Of a stretch of DNA of 64,000 nt, positions 43,864 through 57,715 are shown in pieces. The translations under genes and the position numbers were made by a program. The notes under the pieces were generated by a model that saw only the letters and a program-made list of their open reading frames with translations, did not search any database and was not told the DNA's origin. Each line of letters starts with the position of its first letter. Position 1 is the first letter of the stretch. Source of the stretch: an uncultured Acidobacteriota bacterium (GTDB lineage: Bacteria; Acidobacteriota; Terriglobia; Acidiferrales; UBA7541); NCBI GenBank assembly GCA_963797765.1, contig CAWCQU010000004.1, positions 444,094 to 508,093 on the forward strand, written 5' to 3'.

Positions 43864-44376
43864 ATGAGCGCGGAAAACAGGGCGAAGATTGGCCGCATTC
43901 TCCTGCTGCTGGGGCGGCTGGGGATGGGCGGAATTTTTCTTTACGCCGCGTACTCGAAGCTTTGGCCGCTGACGACCGTGAAGACCAACCTGGCGTTCTT
44001 CGCGATGCAGGTGGATTCGTATCAATTGCTGCCGTCTTCGATGGTGATGTTTGTGGCGAAGACGCTGCCGTGGTTTGAACTGGCGCTCGGGCTGGGATTG
44101 GTGATTGGATGGCCGTTGCGGCTGATCAGCAGCGCTGCGAGTGCGCTAATTCTGGGATTTTTTATCGTGATTGTTCGCAGCTATGCGATGGGATTGCAGA
44201 TTAATTGCGGCTGTTTTGGGCAGAGCGAAAAGTTGGATTTCACTAAGGTAATTCTGGATGGTTTGATGCTCGCGCTCACGCTGGCGGTGACCATCGGAGC
44301 GTTTCTGCGTCATCGCAGAATGATTAACGGCAGCTCCGCGGTTCCCCTTACTTCTCCTCAACTGAAAACAGAGTAG
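43864..44376 (+). CDS. DoxX/MauE-like membrane protein
   Basis: Four TM helices, a CGCFG motif, paired with the DsbA-like gene. Confidence 0.65.
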   Translation: MSAENRAKIGRILLLLGRLGMGGIFLYAAYSKLWPLTTVKTNLAFFAMQVDSYQLLPSSMVMFVAKTLPWFELALGLGLVIGWPLRLISSAASALILGFFIVIVRSYAMGLQINCGCFGQSEKLDFTKVILDGLMLALTLAVTIGAFLRHRRMINGSSAVPLTSPQLKTE

Positions 44377-44428
44377 AATTGTTCGCGGTTCAAATTTTTC
44401 GCGGATCAAGCCAACAGGCGGTATCCAC

Positions 44429-45007
44429 ATGAAAAGTCTTGAGGAATATCTTGTGCTTGCGGAAGAAGTGCACGGACATCTTTGCGCGGGGCAAGTGCTG
44501 GGAGTGCGCCTGGCGATGTATGGGGTGCGGGAATTGGGGATCGAAGATCCGATTCGCGAGCGGAAGCGGCTGGTGACGTTTGTCGAGATCGACCGCTGCG
44601 TGACGGACGCTGTGGCGCTGGTGGCCAATTGCCGGCTCGGCAAACGCGCGCTGAAATTTTTGGACTGGGGAAAAGTGGCGGCGACGTTCGTGGATTTGCA
44701 GACGAGACGCGCGGTGCGGATTGTAGCCACGGAGAAATCGAAGTCGCTGGCGCGGGAAATGTTTCCGGAGCTTGAAAAAGAGCCTGGGCAGCAGAAGGCT
44801 TACCAGCTTTTGCCGGACGATGAACTCTTTGAGAAACAGTGGGTGCAGGTGGAATTGCGTCCCGAGGATTTGCCCGGCTACAAAGGGCCCCGAGTAGTTT
44901 GCGCCGAGTGCGGGGAAGGAATTAATTTTAAACGCGAAGTGATTCAAGACGGGCGCACGCTTTGCCGCGGGTGCGCCGGCGAACGATATTGGAAACCACT
45001 GGAGTAA
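44429..45007 (+). CDS. FmdE/FwdE-family protein with a C-terminal zinc ribbon
   Basis: HGHLCAGQVLGVR...VEIDRCVTDAV... and CAECGEGIN...CRGCAG. Confidence 0.65.
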   Translation: MKSLEEYLVLAEEVHGHLCAGQVLGVRLAMYGVRELGIEDPIRERKRLVTFVEIDRCVTDAVALVANCRLGKRALKFLDWGKVAATFVDLQTRRAVRIVATEKSKSLAREMFPELEKEPGQQKAYQLLPDDELFEKQWVQVELRPEDLPGYKGPRVVCAECGEGINFKREVIQDGRTLCRGCAGERYWKPLE

Positions 45008-45129
45008 GCCTACCCCGGCTAATCCCGAAGTCTTAATAAGCCATAACCGTGCCGGCCTGAAGGCCGGCGCTACATTGCATTTCCAGTTGATTGCGCGGCG
45101 GAGTAGAATGCCGCGTTCCCTTGGAGGAT

Positions 45130-47399
45130 CGAATGCATCGTTCCCCTGAAAAAGGAAGGCGATTTGCGTTTGCAATTATTCCGATTGCTGCATTTGCAAT
45201 TTTTTTGCGGGTGCGGATGTTGCGCGCGCGCAGGGCGGCGGTAAAGAACTGACTGTAGAGCGCATCGCGAGCCATCCGAGCTTGAGCGGGACAAATTTGG
45301 AAGGCTTAGAGTGGGCGCCGGACGGCAAGCGGTTGAGCTATTTTCACCGGTTGGGCGAAGGGCGCGGTTCTCGCAACGAACTTTGGGTAGTGGATGCCGC
45401 CACGGGACAACACAGCGTGTTGGTGGACGCGGACAAGCTTTCGTCACTGCTGCCGCCTTCGAAATCCGCGCCTTCGCAGGCCACTGGCCTGGCGCGCGTG
45501 CAGGCTGACCGCTATCTATGGGCGCCGAACGGAAGAGCATTGCTATTTAGCAGCGATGAAGGGTTGGTTTGGCTCGATCTGAACACTCATGAAACGAAAA
45601 CCTTGATCACTTCGGATTCACCGGTGGCGGATGCAAGGATTTCGCCCAACGGCGAGTGGGTGAGCTTCGTGCGCGATCACAATCTGTGGACGATCGATCT
45701 TTTGACGCGAAAGGAGACGCAAGTCACGCGCGGCGGGAATAGCGAATTTTTGGAGGGCGAACTCGACTGGGTGTATCCCGAAGAACTGGCGCTGCACGAA
45801 GCGTATTGGTGGTCACCTGATTCGACACATATCGCCTATTTGGAGATGGATGAACGGCAGGTGACGAAATATCCGATCGTGGACTATCTCTCCTACACCG
45901 GCGCGATGCGAACGATGTTCTATCCCAAGGCGGGCGATGCGAATCCGATTGTGCGCGTGGGAGTGGTGGCGGCTACCGGCGGCAAGACGCAATGGATGAC
46001 AACCGGATCGAACACGGATATTTACATTCCGCGGGTGAATTGGCTGCCCGACAGCAAGCGCCTGGCAATCCAGCGGCTGAACCGCGCGCAAAACAAACTG
46101 GAACTGCTGCTGGCGGATTCGGAAGGCGGGACTTCGCAAGTGATCCTGACCGATTCGGACAGGTATTGGATCAACGTGAGCGACGATCTTTATTTTTTCA
46201 AGGACGGGAAGCGATTTCTGTGGTCGAGCGAGCGCACGGGATACCGGCACTTTTATATTTACGATCTCAGCGGCAATCAGATGGATCAGCTTACATCCGG
46301 GGACTGGCACATCATCGGCACACAGGGATTCGGCCCGGGCGCGGTGAACGAGCCCGCTGTGGACGAGGCGAGCGGCTACGTTTATTTTCTTTCGAACAAG
46401 GAGAGCCCCATCGAAACGCAGCTTTATCGAGTTTCGTTGAAGGACAAGCAGGTCACGCGCATCACGAGAGAGGCCGGGGCGCACTCGGTGCATTTTTCTC
46501 CGACGGCCAGTGCGTTCGTGGACAGCTACTCGAACGCGATGACTCCGCCGCGGCAGGACTTGTATCACGCCGACGGCGCGAGGATCGCGGTGCTGAATGA
46601 AAATGTCGTGGCGGAGCTGAATGAATATCATCTGGTGCCGCCGCAATTCATCGTTATTCCCGGAGCGGACGGCACGCCTCTTGAGGCGGCGGTGATTCGT
46701 CCGCCGGATTTCAGCGGCGCGAAAAAGTATCCGGTAATTTTGCACGTATACGGCGGACCGGGCGCGCAAACGGTGCGAAATGCCTGGGAGGGCGCGAATT
46801 TTCTGTGGCATCAAATAATGGCGCAGAAGGGATTCATCATTTTGGAGCTGGACACGCGCGGAACGGCGGGGAGGGGACATGCTTTCGAAACGCCGATCTA
46901 TCATCATTTCGGCGATCCCGAACTTGCCGACGAACTGGCCGCTGCCAAATATTTGAAGTCGCTCGATTATGTGGATGGCTCGCGAATCGGGATATGGGGA
47001 TGGAGTTTCGGCGGATTCATGACGGTGACGACGATGTTCAAGGCCGGGGACGTGTTTAAGGCTGGATTTGCTGGATCGCCGGTTACGGATTGGCGGCAGT
47101 ACGACACGATTTATACGGAACGCTATATGGGGAAGCCCCAGGACGATCCGGAGGGGTATCGGGATTGCTCTCCAGTGAATTTCGCCGCGCAGCTCTCCGG
47201 GAAACTCTTGATTGCAGCGGGCACGGGCGATGACAACGTTCATTTCGGCAATACAGTGGAGCTCGCGGAAAAGCTGATTCAAGCGGACCGCTACGCTGAG
47301 ATTGCGATCTATCCTGGGCGGGGACACGGCATCAGCGATCCGCCGGCACGGATCCAATTGTTTCAGCGGGTGACGAAATTCTTTCTTGATAATTTGTGA
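45130..47399 (+). CDS. S9 family dipeptidyl-peptidase (DPP IV-like). The signal peptide is out of frame with the body at a T7 run (45200-45206).
   Basis: C-terminal peptidase_S9 (GWSFGGFMT, ...D..H). Upstream frame MHRSPEKGRRFAFAIIPIAAFAIF... after AAGGAAGG. Adding one T to the T7 run gives ...AFAIFFAGADVARAQGGGKELTVERIASHPSLSGTNLEGLEWAPDGKRLSY. Confidence 0.8.
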
Positions 47400-47455
47400 G
47401 GCGAGCCTGAATCGAGGCGGCAGCTGTTCGTGGGGGACATTGAACTCTGGATCCC

Positions 47456-47489
47456 TCGTCCCGGTTAACAACATCGGGACGCAGAAGGC
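47456..47489. repeat. Possible degenerate REP-like copy H (GTCCCGgttaacaacaTCGGGAC-GCAGAAGG)
   Basis: Inner hairpin and a CGCAGAAGG tail that resembles CGAGGAA. Confidence 0.3.
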
Positions 47490-47860
47490 GCGCTGACGCT
47501 CGGGATGACACCATGAAGACATGTGACGCTGCGGATTCACAAGTTCAACGCCTTAACGGGTAATCCGGTTTTCAAAACATGAAAATTTGAATTCGCGCGG
47601 GGATGCGATGCAGTCTTCAAGCCCGCGTATCCAAGGTTTGCAGAGAGCCTTGATCGCCGCGATCCATCGTCGATCGCGGCTTGGCATCCCAACCCAAAGG
47701 CCATCAAGATTGTTTGGGCTAGCGGCACTTCTGGAGTAGTCTCAGGTCGGAAATTCCAGTCCGCCAGCGGATGGGGCAATTGGAACGACTTGTGTCACCG
47801 ATTCCGTGGAACCTCCGACAGGCCCGGTGAGTCTAATCCGAATAAGGATGAATCGAAACA

Positions 47861-48451
47861 TTGCCCGGGAAAAATAGATTCCGTGCCGCGATTTTCGCGA
47901 TTTTGCTGGGGAGCGCATGTATTGCGAGTGCGCGCGCGGAAAAGCGGGAAATCGATGTAGCGCACTCGATAATGAAAGTGCGTGTCTACAAAACTGGATT
48001 GTTTTCCGGGTTCGCGCACGACCACGAAATTTCCGCCCCGATTGCAAAGGGGACCGTTGAAGATTCGTCGAGCGCGAGCGTGGACCTGACTGTGGATGCA
48101 GGCAAGCTGCACGTGGAAGATCCGGACGTATCCGAGAAGGATCGCGCGCAAATCCAGCAAACCATGCAGGGGCCGCAGGTGCTGGATAGCGCGCAATTCC
48201 CGGAGATTCGATTTCATTCCACGCGCGTGCAGGCGGCGGGGAACGACCGCTGGACCGTTGAAGGGAATCTGACCCTGCACGGACAGACGCATCCCGTTCA
48301 ACTTACGGTTACGAAAAAAGAGAGAAAGTTCGAAGGATCAGCCGTGTTCAAGCAACGCGCCTTCGGAATCACTCCTGTGAGTGTGGCCGGCGGCACCGTG
48401 AAAGTGAAAGATGAAGTGAAAATCGAATTTCAAATCGTACTTGAGCACTAA
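47861..48451 (+). CDS. YceI family periplasmic (lipid/polyisoprenoid-binding) protein
   Basis: Signal peptide plus YceI-like fold (..VRVYKTGLFSGFAHDHEI...). TTG start. Confidence 0.75.
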   Translation: MPGKNRFRAAIFAILLGSACIASARAEKREIDVAHSIMKVRVYKTGLFSGFAHDHEISAPIAKGTVEDSSSASVDLTVDAGKLHVEDPDVSEKDRAQIQQTMQGPQVLDSAQFPEIRFHSTRVQAAGNDRWTVEGNLTLHGQTHPVQLTVTKKERKFEGSAVFKQRAFGITPVSVAGGTVKVKDEVKIEFQIVLEH

Positions 48452-48463
48452 GGGGATTCTCCC

Positions 48464-49540
48464 ATGAGCACTCTAGACGCAGTTCGCTCCGGGCCTTCCA
48501 TCGCCGCAACCGCCACGGCCGTCCCTCCTTACCTGATGTCGCGCGAGCAGGTGAAGACCTATTTTGAAAAAGCGTTCACGCTCGATCCACGGCGGCTGAA
48601 CGGCATTCATGCGGTGGTGGACAATTCGCAGATTGAAAATCGATTCAGCGTTTTCCCGCTGGATTATTTTATCGAGCAGCGGTCGCTGGCCCAGATCAGC
48701 CTGGAATATTCGGAGTGCGCGATCCGCCTAGGCCGCCAGGTGACGGAGGAGTGCCTGGAGCGCGCTGGTTTGAAAGCCACTGATATCGACATGTTTATCA
48801 CCGTCTCCTGCACCGGCGTGATGATTCCGTCGCTGGACGCGCACCTGATGAACCAGCTTGGATTCCGCTCCGACGTTCGCCGGTTGCCGATCACAGAATT
48901 GGGCTGCGCGGCGGGCGCCGCTGCGTTCACGCGCGCCTGGGAGTATTTGCGCGCTTATCCGGATCGCAATGTATTAATTGTGGCTGTAGAACTGCCAACC
49001 CTGACGTTTCAACGCGGCGATTTGTCGCAGGCAAACCTGGTTTCCTGCGCGCTGTTTGGAGATGGAGCGGGGGCGGCGATTGTGACCGGGCGGCCGACGG
49101 GCGGTCCGCAGATATTGGCTTCGGAAAGTTACCTGTTTCCGGATTCGATTGCGGCAATGGGATTCGATTTGCGGGATACGGGATTCCACATTGTGCTGTC
49201 GCGAGATGTGCCGCAATTAATCCGCAGCAAAATCAAGGGATTGGTAAACGGATTTCTGGAACAAAACGAGATTTCGCGCGAGCAGATTTCCGCGTTCATT
49301 CTCCACCCCGGCGGGCAAAAACTGCTGGCATACCTGGAAGAAGAATTGGGGCTTTGCCGCTGCGAGACACAGATTTCCTGGGATGTGTTGCGCGAGTACG
49401 GAAATTTATCGAGCGCGACGATTCTATTCGTGTTGCACGATTGGCTGACGAAAAAAACGATTGCCGCGGGGCAATTTGGCTTGATGGCGGCGTTTGGCCC
49501 CGGGTTCAGTTCGGAGATGCTGCTGCTGCAATGGAAATGA
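48464..49540 (+). CDS. type III polyketide synthase (chalcone/stilbene synthase family)
   Basis: Active-site Cys in VSCTGVMIPSLDA, GCAAGAAA, and the C-terminal HPGGQKLL...GFGPG. Confidence 0.9.
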   Translation: MSTLDAVRSGPSIAATATAVPPYLMSREQVKTYFEKAFTLDPRRLNGIHAVVDNSQIENRFSVFPLDYFIEQRSLAQISLEYSECAIRLGRQVTEECLERAGLKATDIDMFITVSCTGVMIPSLDAHLMNQLGFRSDVRRLPITELGCAAGAAAFTRAWEYLRAYPDRNVLIVAVELPTLTFQRGDLSQANLVSCALFGDGAGAAIVTGRPTGGPQILASESYLFPDSIAAMGFDLRDTGFHIVLSRDVPQLIRSKIKGLVNGFLEQNEISREQISAFILHPGGQKLLAYLEEELGLCRCETQISWDVLREYGNLSSATILFVLHDWLTKKTIAAGQFGLMAAFGPGFSSEMLLLQWK

Positions 49541-50142
49541 GCGCTGCTATTTACACCGCGTTTCTGGCACTGGTGGGCGTGGGACGGCTGATCGAGCTGC
49601 GCATTTCGCGGCGAAATCAGCAACGGCTGCTGGAACGCGGTGCGGAACGGGTGGTTGATCCGAATTTCCGGTGGATGGTGGCGCTGCACACAGGAATTCT
49701 GGTATGTGCGGCACTGGAAGTCTGGCTACTGCGCAGGCCGTTCATTCCGGCGCTGGCGGCGAGCATGGCGGTGCTTTTCGTAGCGGCGAACGCGGTGCGC
49801 TGGTGGGTGATTGCAACCCTGGCGGGCCATTGGAATGTGCAGGTGGTGTCGTCCACTCGATTGGGCGTGATTTCGAGTGGACCTTATCGCTGGGTGCGGC
49901 ATCCAAACTATGCGGCTGTTTTTGTGGAAATGATCGCGCTGCCAATGATTTATACGGCCTGGGTGACGGCTTTGTTGGGAGCGATTGCGCATTTATTTGT
50001 GCTGAGGGCGCGGCTGCGGGTGGAGGATGGGGCGCTGCTGGCCGATCCTGCGTATCGCGCCGCGATGGGCGACAAGCCGAGATTTTTCCCTAATTTCTTC
50101 GTGAGCGACAAAAAGGGCGCAGCCCTGCGAGGCTCAGGGTAG
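49531..50142 (+). CDS. ICMT/PEMT-family membrane methyltransferase (SrsB/BpsB-like), translationally coupled to the PKS
   Basis: GPYRWVRHPNY motif, multiple TM helices. Start overlaps the PKS stop (ATGGAAATGA). Confidence 0.8.
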   Translation: MEMSAAIYTAFLALVGVGRLIELRISRRNQQRLLERGAERVVDPNFRWMVALHTGILVCAALEVWLLRRPFIPALAASMAVLFVAANAVRWWVIATLAGHWNVQVVSSTRLGVISSGPYRWVRHPNYAAVFVEMIALPMIYTAWVTALLGAIAHLFVLRARLRVEDGALLADPAYRAAMGDKPRFFPNFFVSDKKGAALRGSG

Positions 50143-50205
50143 AAAGAAAAGGGCGCGGCTCCCCGATAAAATTCATCGGGGGCAGGAAAGCCGGCCCCTA
50201 CATAC
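50115..50205. repeat. Composite repeat: R3 module (GGGCGCAGCCCTGCGAGGCTCAGGGTAGA), then REP-like hairpin copy F (CCCCGATaaaattcATCGGGGG-CAGGAA), then the AAGCCGGCCCCTACATA module
   Basis: Joins in one place the modules that occur separately at 33455-33505, 39624-39670, 17927-17986 and 18087-18105. Confidence 0.5.
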
Positions 50206-50255
50206 AGACGAGGCGGGCAGAAGGTGATGGGCGCATCCAAGCGCGGAGTGAATCA

Positions 50256-51560
50256 ATGACGGACGTGCTCATTGCCGGAGGCGGGATCGCGGGTTCAGCG
50301 CTGGCCATCCTGCTTGGCCGGCAGGGATTATCGGTGGAACTGTTCGAGCGCGGAAGTTTTCCGAAAGAAAAACCATGCGGGGAAGGCTTGATGCCTGGCG
50401 GCATTGCCGTGCTGCAACGGCTGAGGCTGGCACAGGCCGTGGGTGGGACCCCTTTTTTCGGAGTTCGATATCACTCCGGAGAGCGGACGGCGGAAGGACG
50501 ATTCCCGAAAGTTGAGGGGTATCCCACGTTCGGACGCGGACAGCGCCGCAAAATTCTGGACGAAACACTTTTCAGCGCGGCGGCAGAGACCGACGGAGTC
50601 TCGGCGCATACGGGGACGCAGGTGACTTCGCTGCTGTGGGAAAATGGACGCGTGGCGGGAGTGGAGGTGGATGGCGAGCCGCATCGCGCCGCCCTGGTGG
50701 TGGCAGCAGACGGTGTGCATTCGAAACTGCGACACCTGGCGGGACTTGAAACGTCGTCGAAGCGCAAACGAGTGGCAGTGTGCACGCACTTCCGTCTGGC
50801 AGAAGGACAGGAACCGGCACCGTGGGTGGATATATTCCTGGGGGACAGGCACGAGCTGTATGTTACGCCACTGCCGAAGCGCGAAATTCTGGTGGCCGCG
50901 CTGGCAGATGCCCGATCGCTGAAAGAGCATCAGGCGGATGGCGTGGCCGCATCAATCGATCAAATTTTTCGCGGATGGTGGCAGGCGCAGCCCTCGCTGG
51001 CGAGACGACTGGAAGGCGCGGAACAGATTTCGGCGCTTCTCACTACATCGCCACTTGCCGGGGAAGCACGCGCTGCCGTGGCTCCGGGAATTGTGTTGCT
51101 GGGAGATGCCGCCGGCTTCACCGATCCAATCACCGGCGGCGGAATGACGCAGGCGCTGATGACCAGCGAGTTGCTGGCGCAAATGATTGTGCGGGGCTTG
51201 GCGGAGGACCGGGAGTGGCTTTCGGATGATTCTTGGATGGCGGCGTTTGATCGGCGGCGGCGGGCGATGCTGCGCGATTACCAGATTGTGACGCGGATGG
51301 TTTTGTGGCTGGCGGATCATCCGCGAATCGCGGCCCGCGCTTTCTCCGCGGTTCGTTCATGGCCCACGTTTCTCTCGCATTTAATCGGTGTGACCAGTGG
51401 TGCGCGCGGTTTACTGGGCGGGAGGGTTCGCGCACCCGCGCGCTTGCCCGTGGTGACGTTTACTAAAAGCTCTTTGTCCAAAAAGAAAGGCTCGGCTCCG
51501 TGGATCCCCGAAATCGGAGGACGTAGCATCCCTTCAGTCCGCGCGGATCATGCCGACTGA
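50256..51560 (+). CDS. FAD-dependent oxidoreductase (geranylgeranyl reductase / flavoprotein hydroxylase family; SrsC-like)
   Basis: N-terminal GGGIAGSA Rossmann motif, GD..G FAD motif (LLGDAAGFTDPITGGG). The C-terminal ~45 aa are low-complexity and overlap the next gene. Confidence 0.8.
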   Translation: MTDVLIAGGGIAGSALAILLGRQGLSVELFERGSFPKEKPCGEGLMPGGIAVLQRLRLAQAVGGTPFFGVRYHSGERTAEGRFPKVEGYPTFGRGQRRKILDETLFSAAAETDGVSAHTGTQVTSLLWENGRVAGVEVDGEPHRAALVVAADGVHSKLRHLAGLETSSKRKRVAVCTHFRLAEGQEPAPWVDIFLGDRHELYVTPLPKREILVAALADARSLKEHQADGVAASIDQIFRGWWQAQPSLARRLEGAEQISALLTTSPLAGEARAAVAPGIVLLGDAAGFTDPITGGGMTQALMTSELLAQMIVRGLAEDREWLSDDSWMAAFDRRRRAMLRDYQIVTRMVLWLADHPRIAARAFSAVRSWPTFLSHLIGVTSGARGLLGGRVRAPARLPVVTFTKSSLSKKKGSAPWIPEIGGRSIPSVRADHAD

Positions 51561-52443
51561 CAAGGTTCACAAGAAAAAATCGATGCGAAAGTTTTTTTAT
51601 AAGGCGATAGCTGTGTTCCTGCTTGCGTCCGTGCACGCGAGCGGAGTGGCAGCGGGATCGGAGGCGCTGCAGCCGCAGGCGCTGCTCGAGCAAGGCTATC
51701 ACGCCATGTACGAGCTGAAGTTCGATGCAGCGCGGCGGACATTTTCCGAATACATGGCCGCGCATCCTGAAGATCCGCTGGGCGATGCGTCGCTGGCGGC
51801 CAGTTACCTGTTTGAAGAATTCAACAGCAAGGGCGTGTTCACTTCGGAATTTTTCCTGGATGACAAGAAACTTCTGGGAGGCGTGGAGGGCCCGCCGGAT
51901 GAAGCGCGGCGCACGGGATTCTTCGCCGCTAATGGCCGGGCGCGCGAAAGGGCTCAACAAATCCTGAAGTCGAATTCACGCGATGCCAATGCATTGTTCG
52001 CTTTGACGATTGCCGACGGCATGGAATCGGACTATGACGCCCTGATTGCCAAGCACCAGCTTGCCAGCTTGAAATTGATGCGCCAGGCGGACGCGAGCGC
52101 GACGCTGTTGCTGGCGATCGATCCCAGCGCGCAGGATGCCAACGTGGCGCTGGGAGCCGCTACCTACGTGATCGGCTGCATGCCCAGTTACAAACGCGCG
52201 TTTCTTTGGATGGGCGGAGTACACGGAGACCGCGAGCGTGGGATGAGCCTGATGGAGCAGGCGGCGCTGCACGGGCATTACTTGCAGCCGTTTGCGAAAG
52301 CGATGCTGGCGCTGGCTTCGTTGCGCGAAAAACAGCCGGAGCGGGCGCGATCGCTGTTTGCGGGACTGGTGCAGGAATTTCCAGAGAATACCGTGTTTGT
52401 ACGCGAACTGGCGCTGGCCGAAAAAAGAGTTGCCCGGCAATAG
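51550..52443 (+). CDS. secreted helical-repeat (TPR-like) hypothetical protein
   Basis: Signal peptide (MRKFFYKAIAVFLLASVHASG from 51583), helical composition. Confidence 0.5.
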   Translation: MPTDKVHKKKSMRKFFYKAIAVFLLASVHASGVAAGSEALQPQALLEQGYHAMYELKFDAARRTFSEYMAAHPEDPLGDASLAASYLFEEFNSKGVFTSEFFLDDKKLLGGVEGPPDEARRTGFFAANGRARERAQQILKSNSRDANALFALTIADGMESDYDALIAKHQLASLKLMRQADASATLLLAIDPSAQDANVALGAATYVIGCMPSYKRAFLWMGGVHGDRERGMSLMEQAALHGHYLQPFAKAMLALASLREKQPERARSLFAGLVQEFPENTVFVRELALAEKRVARQ

Positions 52444-52482
52444 AGACCTGACGCAGGATTCTGGTCCCAGGAGAGTGTTGCC

Positions 52483-53473
52483 ATGATGCTGCGCAAGGTG
52501 GCTGTGGTTCTTGTGTTTGCGTTTTGTGTCGGCTTGATTCCCACGCATTGGATTTGCGCAGGATGCCGCTGCGCCTGCCCCGTTGCCATTCACTTTGCAT
52601 GAAGTGGGTAGCGGAGTGTGGGCGGCGATTGCGCTGCCACAGGGGAAAGCGGGATCGAATGCCGGATTTGTGATTGGAAGCGACAGCGTGGCAGTGGTGG
52701 ATACGTTTGTGACGGCAGATGCGGCGAAGGCCCTGCTGGCTGAGATTCGCAAGAAGACGAATTTGCCGATCCGGTTCGTGGTGAACACGCACTACCATTT
52801 GGACCATACCGCGGGGAACGGCGTTTTTGCGGAAGCGGGAGCGATGATCGTTGCGCAACGAAACGTGGCGCCGTGGCTGCGGACTGAAAATTTGAAATTT
52901 TTTGGTCCGAATCCGAAGCCGGAACAGAAAGCCATGGTGGAATCGCTGGCGCTGCCGCAGATTGTTTACGACCGTGGCGTTGATTTGTTTTTGGGGACAC
53001 GGCGGATTTCCGTGCGATTCCAGCCGGGCCATACAGGCGGAGATTCGGTGGTGGTGATTCCGGATGCGAGCGTGGTGTTCTGCGGCGATTTATTCTGGAA
53101 GCACACTTTGCCGAATTTGATCGATGCGACGACTTCGGATTGGATTGGGACGCTTGACCGGATCACCAAGACCGAGCAGACGGCGACATTTATTCCCGGG
53201 CATGGAGAAATCGGGAAGGTGGCGGATGTGGAACAATTTCGCGATTACCTGACGGCGCTGCGGAAGGCGGTGGGCAATGCGCAGGCCTCCGGAAAATCCG
53301 GGGACGCGATGGTGGAGACAGTGCTCCCGGTGATGAAGGAAAAGTATGGGGACTGGAATTTTTTCGATCATTTCTCGAAGCCGAATATCGCGCAGACTGC
53401 AGCGGAATTGAAGGGTGAGAAGAAAGTTCCGGTTGCCGCGGAGAAGTGGTTCACGTTTGATGGGCCGAATTGA
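52483..53473 (+). CDS. MBL-fold metallo-hydrolase (secreted). The signal peptide frame (ATG 52483) is shifted relative to the mature domain (TTG 52583) near 52553-52562.
   Basis: HYHLDHTAGN motif. Frame 1: MMLRKVAVVLVFAFCVGLIPTHWICA.... Frame 2: ...IGFAQDAAAPAPLPFTLHEVGSG.... A single base restores ...HWICAQDAAAPAPLPFTLHEV.... Confidence 0.7.
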
Positions 53474-53562: not shown

Positions 53563-53594
53563 GGGCGGAGAGCGATCTCCGCCCCTTTTTTATT
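53563..53594. terminator. Bidirectional rho-independent terminator GGGCGGAGAgcgaTCTCCGCCC then TTTTTTATT, preceded by an AAAA run. Two more hairpins lie upstream (53485-53504, 53531-53552).
   Basis: 9-bp GC stem, T6 run. Lies between convergent genes. Confidence 0.75.
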
Positions 53595-53613: not shown

Positions 53614-55116
53614 TTACCAGTGGACACGCACGCGATACGTTAGAGTTGAGGTGCCGTCTTTTTCGACTGGCACGTTGAAACCCAGCGCGAAGGCATCCAG
53701 CTTGATCCATTTGTAATTCGAGCTCAACACTTCCCAATCGCCGCCGATTGGTTCCTTCACTTCCACTGTCACGGGCGTGGTCTTGTGATTGCGAATGGTG
53801 ATTTGATATTCCATTTCGGAGACGCGGTCGCTGATGCGGCGGTAGTCCATTTGCTTGCGTTCGGAGACGATATCGAACGCGTTGCCGATGTGGAGATCGA
53901 GTTTTTCGTCCTTGGGAGTGTGGGTGATATTGGATTCGCCGACGAATTGCAGGCTGCCTTTTGAATCGGCCTGATAGACGCGTACGGTGCCGGCGGGAAG
54001 GGGCATGCCGAGCCCGGATTTTTCTTCGTTCTTGAAGCGGTAGTAAACCTGAACCGGTTCCTTGATGGGCGCGCCGATGGATTGGGAGTTGCGGAAGTAA
54101 TACTGCTGACCTTCGACCACGAATGCTTTTTCAACCGGGATTCCGGTGCCGTTCAACAGGCTGATTTGCTTTGACTCGCTGTTGCGGATGGATGTACGCC
54201 GCTGCAGGGAATAGAGATGATATTCGGAAAAAGATTCCTGCGCGAAAGCCTCTTCCTTGGACACCATCACCTTATCCATCATTCTGCCGTTCATGGGCGC
54301 GGCTTGAGGCGATGGAACTCGATTGACTTCCCCGGCGACCAGTTGCAATTTTGCGTTCTTGAATGCGGCGCCGCTGTTGTTGATAAGGGTGACCCAGCCG
54401 TCGATGTCAGCGGATTTTTCGTCGCGAGTGACTGTGAGAACGTAATCGGCGTTCCAATTCATTCCCGCGGTTAGATAGGAAGCCTCGACGCGCTGGGCTT
54501 GCGAGCCTTTGTTATCGAGAGACCAGACCAGAGTGGGTACGCTGTAGAGATTTTCCGGTAGTTCCGGGAAGCTATATCCATTCGTGGAAACTCCGGTGAC
54601 GATCTGGTTGCCGATTTTCCACACGGGGCCGTTATTATCGGCGAGCAGAGTGGCCTTCACTTCCTCCCACGTGACATCTTTCCCGGAGTAGACCGGCCTG
54701 GTTAAAGTGACCTCGCGGCCCACGTATTTCTGGAGCAGCTTTTGCGGATCGAGCAGGTCGTATTCGTAATTCTGTTCGAGCACGCCAAGTTTATCCGGCT
54801 CGGTGAGAGAACGGATGTGCACGGTGGCGGGATTGATGGCCGCGGCGACGTCTTCAAATCGCAGTGGGAATAAGCCGGCAGGCAAATTGAGCTGGCGGGT
54901 ATCGCGGATGAGGGCCAGGTTTGAGTTGTAGACCGTGACAGCCAGATCGATCTGATCTTTTTGAGTTGTGGCGGCGATGCCGTCCGGACTCTCCGCGGGG
55001 GCGGCATGAGCTTTCGCCAATAGATGACTGGCGAAAGGCGCGATCGTCAAAATCAAGGCCACCGCCGCAAGCAACAACGCTCTTTTCCACGTTTTGTCCA
55101 TCCATGCGTTTCGCAT
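53614..55116 (-). CDS. DUF4139 (with N-terminal DUF4140-like) domain protein, secreted
   Basis: Signal peptide LLLAAVALILTIAPFASHLLAKAHA and the DUF4139 family layout. Last gene of the sigma/anti-sigma operon. Confidence 0.7.
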   Translation of the reverse strand: MRNAWMDKTWKRALLLAAVALILTIAPFASHLLAKAHAAPAESPDGIAATTQKDQIDLAVTVYNSNLALIRDTRQLNLPAGLFPLRFEDVAAAINPATVHIRSLTEPDKLGVLEQNYEYDLLDPQKLLQKYVGREVTLTRPVYSGKDVTWEEVKATLLADNNGPVWKIGNQIVTGVSTNGYSFPELPENLYSVPTLVWSLDNKGSQAQRVEASYLTAGMNWNADYVLTVTRDEKSADIDGWVTLINNSGAAFKNAKLQLVAGEVNRVPSPQAAPMNGRMMDKVMVSKEEAFAQESFSEYHLYSLQRRTSIRNSESKQISLLNGTGIPVEKAFVVEGQQYYFRNSQSIGAPIKEPVQVYYRFKNEEKSGLGMPLPAGTVRVYQADSKGSLQFVGESNITHTPKDEKLDLHIGNAFDIVSERKQMDYRRISDRVSEMEYQITIRNHKTTPVTVEVKEPIGGDWEVLSSNYKWIKLDAFALGFNVPVEKDGTSTLTYRVRVHW

Positions 55117-55320
55117 TGTTTTTCCTCTCGCGATGCAATTGTGTTGCTCTTCCCATGTTAGAACGAAGCTGGTTCATTTTCTTGCAGGTGATTTGTTGAG
55201 ATGAGATCGCCATTCTCCTGAATAGCGTTTTGTCCGGCGCCAATCGGGAGATTGGCGTTCCCGGAAAACCGGCGCGTGCAGGATTATGGCGGAGGTTGTA
55301 ATGGCTTTGAAAATTGTGAG

Positions 55321-56679
55321 TTACTTCGGTTGCCAGGTTTTGCCGCCATCTTTCGTGGAATACATACTCCCGTCGGATACGGTTACGTCAGCATGTTTGG
55401 CGTCCTTGGCCATCACGTTCACCAAATCCATGCTTGTGGGCGCGGAGAGAGTCTTCCATTTGGCGCCATCCGTCGTAAGCATCACAAGGCCCGCATGGCC
55501 CACCACCCAACAGATGCTTGTGGAAGGGGCTTGGGCAGCGGTAAAGACCCGCTTCGCATCCACAAACTGTTCCTGCCAATTCCGGCCCGCGTCCTTGGAT
55601 ATTTCGATTCGTCCTTGACCGGAGATGCGCCACATCACCTTGAGGTCGGGAGAATACACGATAAGTTGAATTGCGCGAGAGTCCGCGGAGGCGCGGCTTC
55701 CCTCGACCGTTGGGGCTTGCGATGTGGATTGCGGGAGCCGGCCGGCGAACACACCTTGCCTGGCGGTCTTCTGCGCTTCCGATTCCCTTGCGACCGGTGC
55801 ATTTGTGCTGTCCGCGGATTTCAGATTATTTCCGTTTGTCATCGCAGCGATTGCGGCTGGCGGGGGCGGTTGCGGCGCGGTCATGGGCGGAGGCGGTGCA
55901 GGCGCGGGCACAGGCGCGCTGGATGCTCCGCGCGCGACGGGCGCTGCGGGCGCCGCGGACGATTCAAGCGTGGCCATGCTTGTGGCTTGCTGCGCACTGG
56001 CGGACGGCGCCCCGGATGTGTGCTGCTTTTCCTCGTCGCGACGTTTGGCGAACATCGCGCCGCCGGCTGTGCCGCGAGTGCTTTCTGATTCACCTCCGAC
56101 GGAAGCGGAATTCGAGAAAGCAGACTTCGGTTTGGCGGTAGGCTCTTTTTCTCGCGCTTCATTCTTGGAAAGAAGCGGAACGGATGTGCGATCGAGTTTC
56201 TTCTGCGGCGCGGATGCGCCGGGCGCAAGTTGCAACAACTGGTCGGTGCTTCTTCCGTTCAGCGGCAGCGATTTCGAGTCCTTGAGCGGCGCATCCTGAA
56301 ATTGCGCGACTTCCGTTGCCGCCGGTTTTTCTTTCGCCGTCTTTAGCGACGGCCGCGCAATCAAAATTACGAACACTGCCGCGGCCACGGCCAACGGCGT
56401 CACCCAAAGGGAAACCAAGCGCCAGTTCCAAACTCTGGCTTTCGTTTTATCCTGAGGCGGCTCGGCGCGAACCATCACCGCAAGGTATTGCTGGCACTGC
56501 GCACAATTTGCGAAATGTTGTTCGACGCGCGTTGTCTCGGAATCGTTCAAGGACCGGTCGTAGTATGCGGCGAGAAGATCCGGATCAGGGCAGCTCTCCT
56601 GCCTTGCATCCGATGCGGGCACAATTGATTTCCGGAGCAGCCCGGTGAGCGTCTTCTCTACTTTGTGTTGCTCTGGCAT
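55321..56679 (-). CDS. anti-sigma factor (zf-HC2) with TM, a long disordered Pro/Ala/Ser-rich periplasmic linker and a C-terminal BNR/Asp-box beta-propeller-like domain
   Basis: HFANCAQCQQ; TM LWVTPLAVAAAVFVILIA; BNR-like SKDAGRNWQ, TTDGAKWKT, TKDGGKTWQ. Confidence 0.7.
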   Translation of the reverse strand: MPEQHKVEKTLTGLLRKSIVPASDARQESCPDPDLLAAYYDRSLNDSETTRVEQHFANCAQCQQYLAVMVRAEPPQDKTKARVWNWRLVSLWVTPLAVAAAVFVILIARPSLKTAKEKPAATEVAQFQDAPLKDSKSLPLNGRSTDQLLQLAPGASAPQKKLDRTSVPLLSKNEAREKEPTAKPKSAFSNSASVGGESESTRGTAGGAMFAKRRDEEKQHTSGAPSASAQQATSMATLESSAAPAAPVARGASSAPVPAPAPPPPMTAPQPPPPAAIAAMTNGNNLKSADSTNAPVARESEAQKTARQGVFAGRLPQSTSQAPTVEGSRASADSRAIQLIVYSPDLKVMWRISGQGRIEISKDAGRNWQEQFVDAKRVFTAAQAPSTSICWVVGHAGLVMLTTDGAKWKTLSAPTSMDLVNVMAKDAKHADVTVSDGSMYSTKDGGKTWQPK

Positions 56680-56734
56680 CCATGCTCCTTCTCTTAGAAC
56701 GCTGCGCGCGGCGTTTCTTGCATCGCCGGCCGCG

Positions 56735-57715
56735 TCATTCTCCGCTGGAAAGAACTTTCGCCAAATCGAACGGCCATTCTTCCTTGGCGTATTCGTAACA
56801 GAGCTTCACTTGCGCATCGCTTAAGCGTTTTTTGACGCGCAGCGCCTGGTCGACCTGCGCGCGCAGATCACGCCGCAAGCGGTCGAGTCTGCGCGAGACA
56901 GTCGCTTCGTGCTCGCCCAGCAGGCGCCCGATTTCGGCCAGCGTCAGTTCCTGAATGTAATAGCACGAAAGCCGCAAGCGATCCCCCGCGTCGAGGGCGG
57001 CGAGAGCTGAAGACAGCTCCGCCTGCAAGATGGCCAGATATTTTGCGCGTTCCGAATCCGGCGCTTCGAACGTTGCAGGGTCGGGCAATTCGCGCGGGGG
57101 ATCGCCTTCCGCGCTTTCGTCCAGGGAATCCGTGCGCCGAGTGCGGCGCAGTTCGTCCACGTGACGCTGCGCCAGAACCGCGCGCAGCCACGTGGTCAGC
57201 TTGCTGCGCCCGTAAAAATAATCGAACAGAGAGCGCCGCTGCCCATCGCGTTCCGCCAAGCCGTACAATTGCGCATAGAGAGAATCGGCCAGTTCGCGGC
57301 CTTGCGAATCGCCCGCGATGGCGCGCGCCGCCCGGTAGAGTTCCGGCCTGTATTCTTTCATGAAGTGTTCCCATGCCAATTCATTACCATCGCTGCAGGC
57401 GCAAGCCAGCGCCAGATCGTGCAAGCGTAGCGAATCGAAATAGGCGGCCAGCGACCCTGGCGCCGCTCCTTCGCCACAAAACCGCTGTGACTTCGCAGCG
57501 CTGCGCTCGAGGGCCAGCCCAAATCGCTCGACCGTTAGTCCCCACTCCGAAGGCACAGCCGCTTTGGCATAAAAAGTTTTGACGAGTGCAGAAGGAAGAT
57601 GCGGCGGCTCACTTTCCGGCACTTCTGGGGGCACTCCTGTACGCACTTCGCCGTCAAGCCCGCCCCGGCGGGCTGTACCAGTTCGATCGGACTGGAGAGG
57701 TCGGTAGTTGAGCAT
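56735..57715 (-). CDS. ECF sigma factor with an N-terminal extension of about 100 aa
   Basis: Region 2 (ELAWEHFMKEYRPELYRAARAIAGD...LFDYFYGRSKLTTWLRAVLAQRHVDELRR) and region 4 (LSCYYIQELTLAEIGRLLGEHEATVSRRLDRLRRDL). Confidence 0.8.
   Translation of the reverse strand: MLNYRPLQSDRTGTARRGGLDGEVRTGVPPEVPESEPPHLPSALVKTFYAKAAVPSEWGLTVERFGLALERSAAKSQRFCGEGAAPGSLAAYFDSLRLHDLALACACSDGNELAWEHFMKEYRPELYRAARAIAGDSQGRELADSLYAQLYGLAERDGQRRSLFDYFYGRSKLTTWLRAVLAQRHVDELRRTRRTDSLDESAEGDPPRELPDPATFEAPDSERAKYLAILQAELSSALAALDAGDRLRLSCYYIQELTLAEIGRLLGEHEATVSRRLDRLRRDLRAQVDQALRVKKRLSDAQVKLCYEYAKEEWPFDLAKVLSSGE

Follow-up and report, generated by a model that had tools for sequence, protein, structure and literature searches.

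Can the secreted proteins encoded beside a phenolic-lipid pathway be the carriers of its products? Alkylresorcinols and related phenolic lipids are made in several bacterial phyla and alter the properties of the envelope; to our knowledge the route by which they leave the inner membrane of double-membraned bacteria is not established, and we did not find their exit addressed in the literature consulted for comparison. The question is raised by a six-gene locus in contig CAWCQU010000004.1 (assembly GCA_963797765.1, positions 444,094 to 508,093; this whole 64,000-nucleotide stretch is called the window below), from the metagenome-assembled genome (MAG) of an uncultured soil member of the Acidobacteriota, class Terriglobia. 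The six co-directional plus-strand genes encode, in order, a YceI-family protein, a type III polyketide synthase (PKS), an ICMT/PEMT-family methyltransferase (MT), an FAD-dependent oxidoreductase (FAD in gene orders), a TPR-like protein and a metallo-beta-lactamase-fold (MBL) hydrolase; all of the open reading frames (ORFs) are present and have assigned domains in ORF, Pfam and NCBIfam scans (Table 1). On balance, we lean toward reading the locus as the acidobacterial form of an SrsABC/HidABC-type phenolic-lipid pathway, to which a pair of periplasmic lipid-handling proteins, YceI and the TPR-like protein, has been added. The evidence for the biosynthetic core is solid, and that for the periplasmic handling module is suggestive but incomplete. 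The core is already known; its recurrent secreted partners, their fusion and the behavior of the genes as a cassette are new observations of moderate weight, and the locus and its relatives nominate the two secreted proteins as candidate phenolic-lipid carriers.

The PKS is predicted from its sequence to be a long-chain alkylresorcinol/alkylpyrone synthase. Its N- and C-terminal Chal_sti_synt domains score 74.6 and 82.2 bits (cutoff 27), and its Cys148-His281-Asn314 triad is intact and invariant across 30 homologs, with C148 aligned to the catalytic cysteine of M. tuberculosis PKS11 (a serine in the mutant entry 4jat, C138S). PKS11, an alkylpyrone synthase, is also the best solved relative (223 bits), followed by THNS/RppA (195 bits) and the alkylresorcinol-forming CylI (190 bits), and acidobacteria hold thousands of homologs at 60-70% identity, many of which carry the JGI label 'alkylresorcinol/alkylpyrone synthase'. 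The THNS score, not far under that of PKS11, could be taken to mean that the product is an RppA/THN-type aromatic polyketide, not a lipid, and that the neighboring genes are unrelated. When a neighbor-joining tree was built, with references reconstructed from PDB alignments and annotated plasmid/chromid replicons and with proxies standing for SrsA and BpsA, THNS and a P450-linked PKS from Streptomyces formed one clade (100% bootstrap), and the window PKS fell outside it, in a sister clade (100% bootstrap) that holds all acidobacterial homologs, PKS11, CylI and the ICMT-linked PKSs of Streptomyces, Brevibacillus, Lysinibacillus and Azospirillum. This placement, together with an obligate ICMT partner in place of the P450 or cupin partners of RppA, makes a non-lipid product highly improbable.

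The conservation of this partner was assessed in a survey of 94 PKS-anchored loci, onto which the six window proteins were mapped; in this GC-rich DNA, shadow ORFs obscured an all-against-all clustering of the ORFs, and greedy non-overlap filtering was then applied. The MT gene directly follows the PKS gene in 83 of the 86 loci with enough downstream sequence. It starts at ATG 49531 (MEMSAAIY...) and overlaps the PKS stop by 10 nt (ATGGAAATGA), an overlap whose sequence, ATGGA(A/C)(A/C)T(G/A)A, is kept across relatives, and its translation therefore appears to be coupled to that of the PKS. The product scores 79.9 bits against PF04140, contains the RHPNY signature within GPYRWVRHPNY and 4-5 hydrophobic helices, and matches Ma-ICMT (4a2n) in the PDB. 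The first-pass annotation of this DNA had proposed both the coupling and a common logic of PKS, ICMT-type methyltransferase and flavoprotein with SrsABC and BpsAB, and both proposals hold up: the domains, the conserved overlap, the constancy of the MT gene beside the PKS gene, the position of the PKS apart from RppA-type enzymes and a homolog in srsC position, described below, all agree with them.

Several relatives carry further genes around this two-gene core. On plasmid AZO_p3 of Azospirillum lipoferum (L097, 4989-10871) the PKS and ICMT genes are followed by genes for an SDR oxidoreductase and a TRAP transporter; an SDR gene also lies 3' of the TPR-like gene in the common acidobacterial PKS-MT-TPR-like block, and the SDR may be a recurrent tailoring partner. 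At L013 (10645-13098) a large AMP-binding/PP-binding/acyltransferase (Aas-like) protein is encoded directly after PKS-MT-FAD-YceI-TPR-like and is a possible supplier of the fatty-acyl starter; no such gene lies near the window cluster. In another acidobacterial genome (L010, 4224-5717) divergently transcribed genes for an acyl carrier protein and a ketoacyl synthase lie upstream of PKS-MT, a possible alternative supply of starter units.

By analogy, the flavoprotein is predicted to be an SrsC-like ring hydroxylase, a reading drawn from a homolog in srsC position, the literature on SrsC and operons that combine MT, FAD and type III PKS (T3PKS) genes. In a replicon of Streptomyces sp. NBC_01237 (L095) the PKS, ICMT-type MT and FAD genes stand in srsABC order, and the window flavoprotein is 32% identical (E 7e-22) to the product of the third gene, with all four motifs in common (GGGIAGS, KPCGEGL, AADGVHS and GDAAGFTDPITGGG; the window protein has GxGxxG, DG and GD motifs in addition to KPCGEGL and GDAAGFTDPITGGG); the identity of this third gene as the SrsC ortholog rests on gene position, the Srs proteins themselves lying outside the comparison. 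In published accounts SrsC is a monooxygenase or hydroxylase whose step follows methylation (PMC6669644; PMC8086630), and the MT-FAD-T3PKS operons of planctomycetes and cyanobacteria make C15/C17 alkylresorcinols or products derived from them (PMC10896814).

Speaking against this assignment, the flavoprotein has geranylgeranyl-reductase-type motifs and no close characterized relative, and it could be a reductase or something else. It scores 64 bits against PF01494, its top NCBIfam match is the geranylgeranyl reductase (GGR) superfamily model TIGR02032, the KPCGEGL motif is typical of GGRs, and the best of its closest solved structures, which reach no more than ~60 bits, is digeranylgeranylglycerophospholipid reductase; weak halogenase matches were also seen. 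Were the enzyme a genuine GGR-type reductase of C=C bonds in an unsaturated side chain, or else a halogenase, the pathway would end in a saturated or halogenated methyl ether, not a quinone. We consider this improbable, as the TIGR02032 score of 117.7 bits is below the trusted cutoff of 158.8 and the motif set is common to the Streptomyces gene in srsC position. The halogenase matches span the FAD-binding N-terminus only, and that assignment was rejected.

Set beside known systems, the three enzymes of the window are of the same types and in the same order as SrsABC of Streptomyces griseus (alkylresorcinol synthase, ICMT-type methyltransferase and flavoprotein hydroxylase). The counterparts in the NBC_01237 operon are 38-40% (PKS) and 44% (MT) identical to those of the window, with the CGEG and GDAAG motifs of the flavoprotein in common; this Streptomyces operon has neither a YceI nor a TPR-like gene, whereas the window has both, plus the 10-nt PKS-MT overlap. 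In Bacillus subtilis (BpsAB) and in the Bacillales relatives L096 and L105, a type III PKS gene likewise has an ICMT methyltransferase gene directly after it, and minimal units of these two genes also occur at many acidobacterial loci, but the Bacillales units have no flavoprotein and no secreted partners, and their PKSs are ~36-38% identical to the window PKS. In hidABC (hierridin, picocyanobacteria) and the Planctomycetota MT-FDO-T3PKS operons (PMC8086630, PMC10896814), which were compared by description, the gene order is reversed relative to the window. In an operon of 'Saltatorellus ferox', the genes for methyltransferases and a type III PKS are preceded by those for a lipoprotein and a 'lipid/isoprenoid-binding protein', partners that were mentioned there without analysis (PMC10896814). 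The earlier suggestion that the secreted partners are foreign to the described srs and bps clusters agrees with the Streptomyces operon and the Bacillales units, and must be qualified for this planctomycete-related operon with its lipid-binding partner.

The first of these partners, YceI, matches PF04264 with 87.7 bits (cutoff 23.7) over profile positions 3-149 of 150, and has a signal peptide (MPGKNRFRAAIFAILLGSACIASA/RA) made up of KNRFR, a hydrophobic stretch and then ASA/RA. Its matches in the PDB are weak (TT1927b, BcnA/BcnB and E. coli YceI, all at <=32 bits). In solved structures of the family the barrel is typically occupied by octaprenylphenol, octaprenyl phosphate or ubiquinone-8 (PMC9113575); these ligands, long-tailed phenols and quinones, would be chemically close to the products predicted here. 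YceI/BcnA lipocalins and the window protein belong to the same Pfam family and are secreted, and the former carry long-tailed phenol or quinone lipids in the barrel; they are usually paired with cytochrome b561 (PMC9113575), whereas the window protein, very divergent in sequence, is paired with a polyketide cluster. Full-text literature searches found no report of YceI combined with a type III PKS or an alkylresorcinol.

Within the survey, the presence of YceI is tightly linked to that of the flavoprotein. Among the 43 well-flanked loci (>=0.8 kb upstream and 3.5 kb downstream), both genes are found in seven, five of which also have the TPR-like gene and two of which do not; YceI without FAD is seen in two, FAD without YceI in one, and neither in the remaining 33 (PKS-MT-TPR-like in 26, PKS-MT only in seven). 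This association is significant by a Fisher test uncorrected for phylogeny (p ~9e-6), and at both YceI-only loci the gene is a degraded remnant of the C-terminus. Two gene orders occur: YceI-PKS-MT-FAD-TPR-like (the window, L001, L003-5, L012, L093 and L102) and PKS-MT-FAD-YceI(-TPR-like) (L013, L014, L015 and L072). L072 has the BipA and SDR flanks of the PKS-MT-TPR-like loci, with FAD-YceI inserted between MT and TPR-like. YceI and the flavoprotein therefore come and go as a unit, in both orders and across six or more genomic contexts, and this tight linkage fits a role of YceI in handling the lipid after its modification by the flavoprotein to a hydroquinone or quinone.

The second partner belongs to a large and uncharacterized family, with more than 2000 homologs, all annotated as hypothetical; a profile search found 287 clusters (at 50% identity) with E<1e-30, a number that rises to 1426 with E<1e-10. 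Translation of the window protein starts at 51583 (MRKFFYK..., with a signal peptide) or at 51550. Pfam gives TPR matches below threshold only, and weak, sub-threshold matches to Iml2/TTC39 (PF10300) appear in 33 of 40 family members; a search of the family profile against PDB sequences gave nothing meaningful, and no homolog was found in the plasmid collection. The AlphaFold model (pLDDT 90.6) is all helical, and its top fold matches include the TPR domain of PTPIP51, reported to be a lipid-transfer domain (PMC10243591), the sterol binder BstC and TatT, the last two being periplasmic TPR-like lipid binders (PMC10942540, PMC11713862). At the level of sequence the window protein is unrelated to TatT/BstC and to the PTPIP51 domain. 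We regard it as a candidate periplasmic lipid-binding or adaptor protein.

A link between the two partners comes from natural fusions. In one family representative, 442 aa long, a signal peptide is followed by a TPR-like domain, which shares 39% identity with the window protein (E 2e-52), and by a YceI domain. The same arrangement is seen in no fewer than 21 separate 90%-identity clusters (422-466 aa, 46-62% identical) from several independent data sources. In the model of the fusion the last helix ends at residue 273 and the first strand of the barrel starts at 275, with high confidence at the junction and no linker. By a Rosetta-stone type of argument, this is suggestive of the TPR-like and YceI proteins acting together, and it offers a first functional lead for an abundant 'hypothetical' family of soil Acidobacteriota.

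Other fusions involving the TPR-like domain were also seen. In P0254 and P0286 it forms the C-terminus of Lgt (prolipoprotein diacylglyceryl transferase) and of a GT87-like membrane glycosyltransferase, which again sets it on the periplasmic side of membrane enzymes that handle lipids; read-through between adjacent genes is possible. P0262 (397 aa), in which a TPR-like domain runs into the final ~100 residues of a type III PKS, is most likely a chimera or deletion and was rejected as evidence, though it hints at one more adjacency of TPR-like and PKS genes.

The TPR-like gene lies 3' of PKS-MT in 31 of the 43 well-flanked loci (26 plus the five with all partners), in at least four different flanking contexts. 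When four TPR-like homologs were sampled from the other side, one (63% identity) was found in a full cassette and three (56-62% identity) in the arrangement DPP-IV - TPR-like - DUF4139. These cassette-less loci (L098/99, L100/101 and L103) share the chromosomal neighborhood of the window and are without YceI, PKS, MT, FAD and MBL; in this lineage the TPR-like gene is therefore the resident, and the four genes YceI-PKS-MT-FAD have been inserted, or deleted, immediately 5' of it. They behave as a cassette, with the DPP-IV peptidase gene on one side and the resident TPR-like gene on the other. A search for repeats or mobile-element scars at the borders of the cassette found none.

This behavior bears on whether YceI and the TPR-like protein serve the polyketide at all. 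They might instead constitute a periplasmic system of general use for the lipids or quinones of the envelope, such as in isoprenoid quinone carriage or as an antioxidant, unrelated to the polyketide; the PKS cassette would then merely have come to lie next to the TPR-like gene, or share stress regulation with it. Several observations weigh against a dedicated pair. The three cassette-less homologs show the TPR-like gene alone at the same chromosomal site, and its position in the window operon may partly reflect where the cassette landed. Nearly all PKS-MT-TPR-like loci have one syntenic block in common and therefore represent few independent events. The one fusion gene with readable context (L106) has no PKS within 7 kb, and the TPR-like/YceI pair may therefore have a wider use as a periplasmic lipid module, one that is attached to the polyketide cluster in some genomes. 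Generic protein-binding TPRs match the TPR-like model as well as the lipid-binding ones do, and PF16811 (TatT/BstC) finds no match in 40 members of the family even at E up to 10. Elsewhere, YceI is paired with cytochrome b561 and binds ubiquinone-8 (UQ-8) (PMC9113575). Set against a general system are the recurrence of the PKS-MT adjacency in at least four flanking contexts and two gene orders, the near-constant company of YceI and FAD, with YceI decaying where FAD is lost (L006), and the lipid-binding protein encoded in the T3PKS operon of an unrelated bacterium. We consider a general system possible, if rather unlikely, and continue to favor a pair joined to the phenolic-lipid pathway.

In the pathway that we propose, the type III PKS, placed by its family, would be primed with a long-chain fatty acyl thioester and add malonyl units to give an alkylresorcinol or alkylpyrone. 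The membrane-bound ICMT-type methyltransferase, made by coupled translation, would O-methylate the ring, as BpsB and SrsB do. The GGR-like flavoprotein would then modify this product, most likely by ring hydroxylation to an alkyl-methoxy-hydroquinone or -quinone as reported for SrsC; this is the least certain of the enzymatic steps. On the periplasmic side, the secreted YceI beta-barrel could take up the amphiphilic phenol or quinone, and the secreted TPR-like protein may work with YceI as a second binder or as an adaptor for delivery to the outer envelope. A more specific version, which we put forward as a speculation with the odds well against it, is that the TPR-like and YceI proteins are a hitherto unrecognized two-component periplasmic shuttle, sometimes fused, which would take a ubiquinone-like alkyl-methoxy-benzoquinone, the product of PKS-MT-FAD, out of the inner membrane and into the periplasm or outer membrane. 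Acidobacteria are menaquinone-based, and such a shuttle would imply a polyketide-derived envelope quinone or antioxidant in these organisms.

The sixth gene probably has no place in the system. The MBL hydrolase matches PF00753 with 79.4 bits and has the HxHxDH motif (NTHYHLDHTAGN), with a TIGR04559 score of 152 bits that is below the cutoff. Its signal peptide (ATG 52483, MMLRKVAVVLVFAFCVGLI, segment 52483-52543) and its catalytic domain lie in different frames owing to a 1-bp insertion near 52543 relative to L001 (CCCACGC versus CCC-CGC), where the gene is intact; the frameshift is either a sequencing error or the mark of a recent pseudogene. L001, L003, L012 and L102 have the gene; L004, a cassette-bearing locus, and all of the cassette-less loci do not, and the MBL gene is an inconstant neighbor. 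The first-pass annotation had counted it as a secreted partner, which we do not uphold. The annotation had also placed a secreted YceI protein upstream in the operon and a secreted TPR-like protein downstream, and both are borne out as recurrent partners with predicted signal peptides. Its wider idea of periplasmic lipid handling by the partners stands in part, for YceI and the TPR-like protein as recurrent and predicted secreted proteins; it fails for the MBL hydrolase and is tempered by the resident TPR-like genes that have no cassette beside them.

Table 1. Features of the six-gene locus and its borders (window coordinates)
Feature	Coordinates	Strand	Domains, motifs and remarks
DPP-IV/S9 peptidase gene	45282-47399		5' flank of the six-gene unit
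Intergenic leader, 461 bp, DPP-IV peptidase gene to yceI	47400-47860	+	presumed promoter region
Secreted YceI-family lipocalin-like protein, 196 aa, TTG start	47861-48451	+	PF04264
Type III PKS, 358 aa	48464-49540	+	Chal_sti_synt_N, Chal_sti_synt_C; catalytic C148/H281/N314
ICMT/PEMT-family integral-membrane methyltransferase, 203 aa	49531-50142	+	PF04140, GPYRWVRHPNY
FAD-dependent oxidoreductase, geranylgeranyl-reductase-like branch, 434 aa	50256-51560	+	PF01494
Secreted all-helical TPR-like protein, 286 aa (297 aa if start 51550)	51583-52443	+	sub-threshold TPR matches
Metallo-beta-lactamase-fold hydrolase (SoxH-like)	52483-53473 (catalytic ORF 52583-53473)	+	PF00753, HYHLDH motif
Intrinsic terminator ending the plus-strand unit	53563-53594	+	9-bp stem, 7 GC pairs, then CTTTTTTATT
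DUF4139 gene, convergent	53614-55116	-	3' flank of the six-gene unit

The genes are closely spaced. The ORFs first called here were all recovered, with the starts of the MT, TPR-like and MBL genes corrected. Spacers measure 12 nt between yceI and PKS and 113 nt between MT and FAD, and that between FAD and TPR-like is 22 nt or an 11-nt overlap, depending on the TPR-like start. The only strong plus-strand terminator is the one 3' of the MBL gene, and no convincing candidate for an internal terminator was found within the six-gene unit. The leader, presumed to be the promoter region of the operon, has no plus-strand ORF of >=80 aa, and the region, leader included, gave no match to a sigma-70 consensus promoter or to Rfam. 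The leader is kept in L001 and missing from the cassette-less loci, where the spacer between the DPP-IV and TPR-like genes is ~108 bp.

L001, a 98%-identical locus from an uncultured Acidobacteriota MAG, is the closest public relative; a contig scan with the single window PKS sequence returned three near-identical loci. At L001 8900-10170 the FAD gene was matched as three pieces in different frames, which suggests indel errors in that assembly. The neighborhood around the cassette site is kept in several Terriglobia (43864-47399 and 53614-57715 in the window). Its 3' side has genes for DUF4139, a BNR-like protein with an anti-sigma-like N-terminus and a sigma-70-like factor, all on the minus strand. 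Its 5' side consists of MauE-DoxX, FmdE plus zinc-finger and DPP-IV peptidase genes, with Thioredoxin_4 at the 5' end in the relatives L004, L012, L098 and L103 only.

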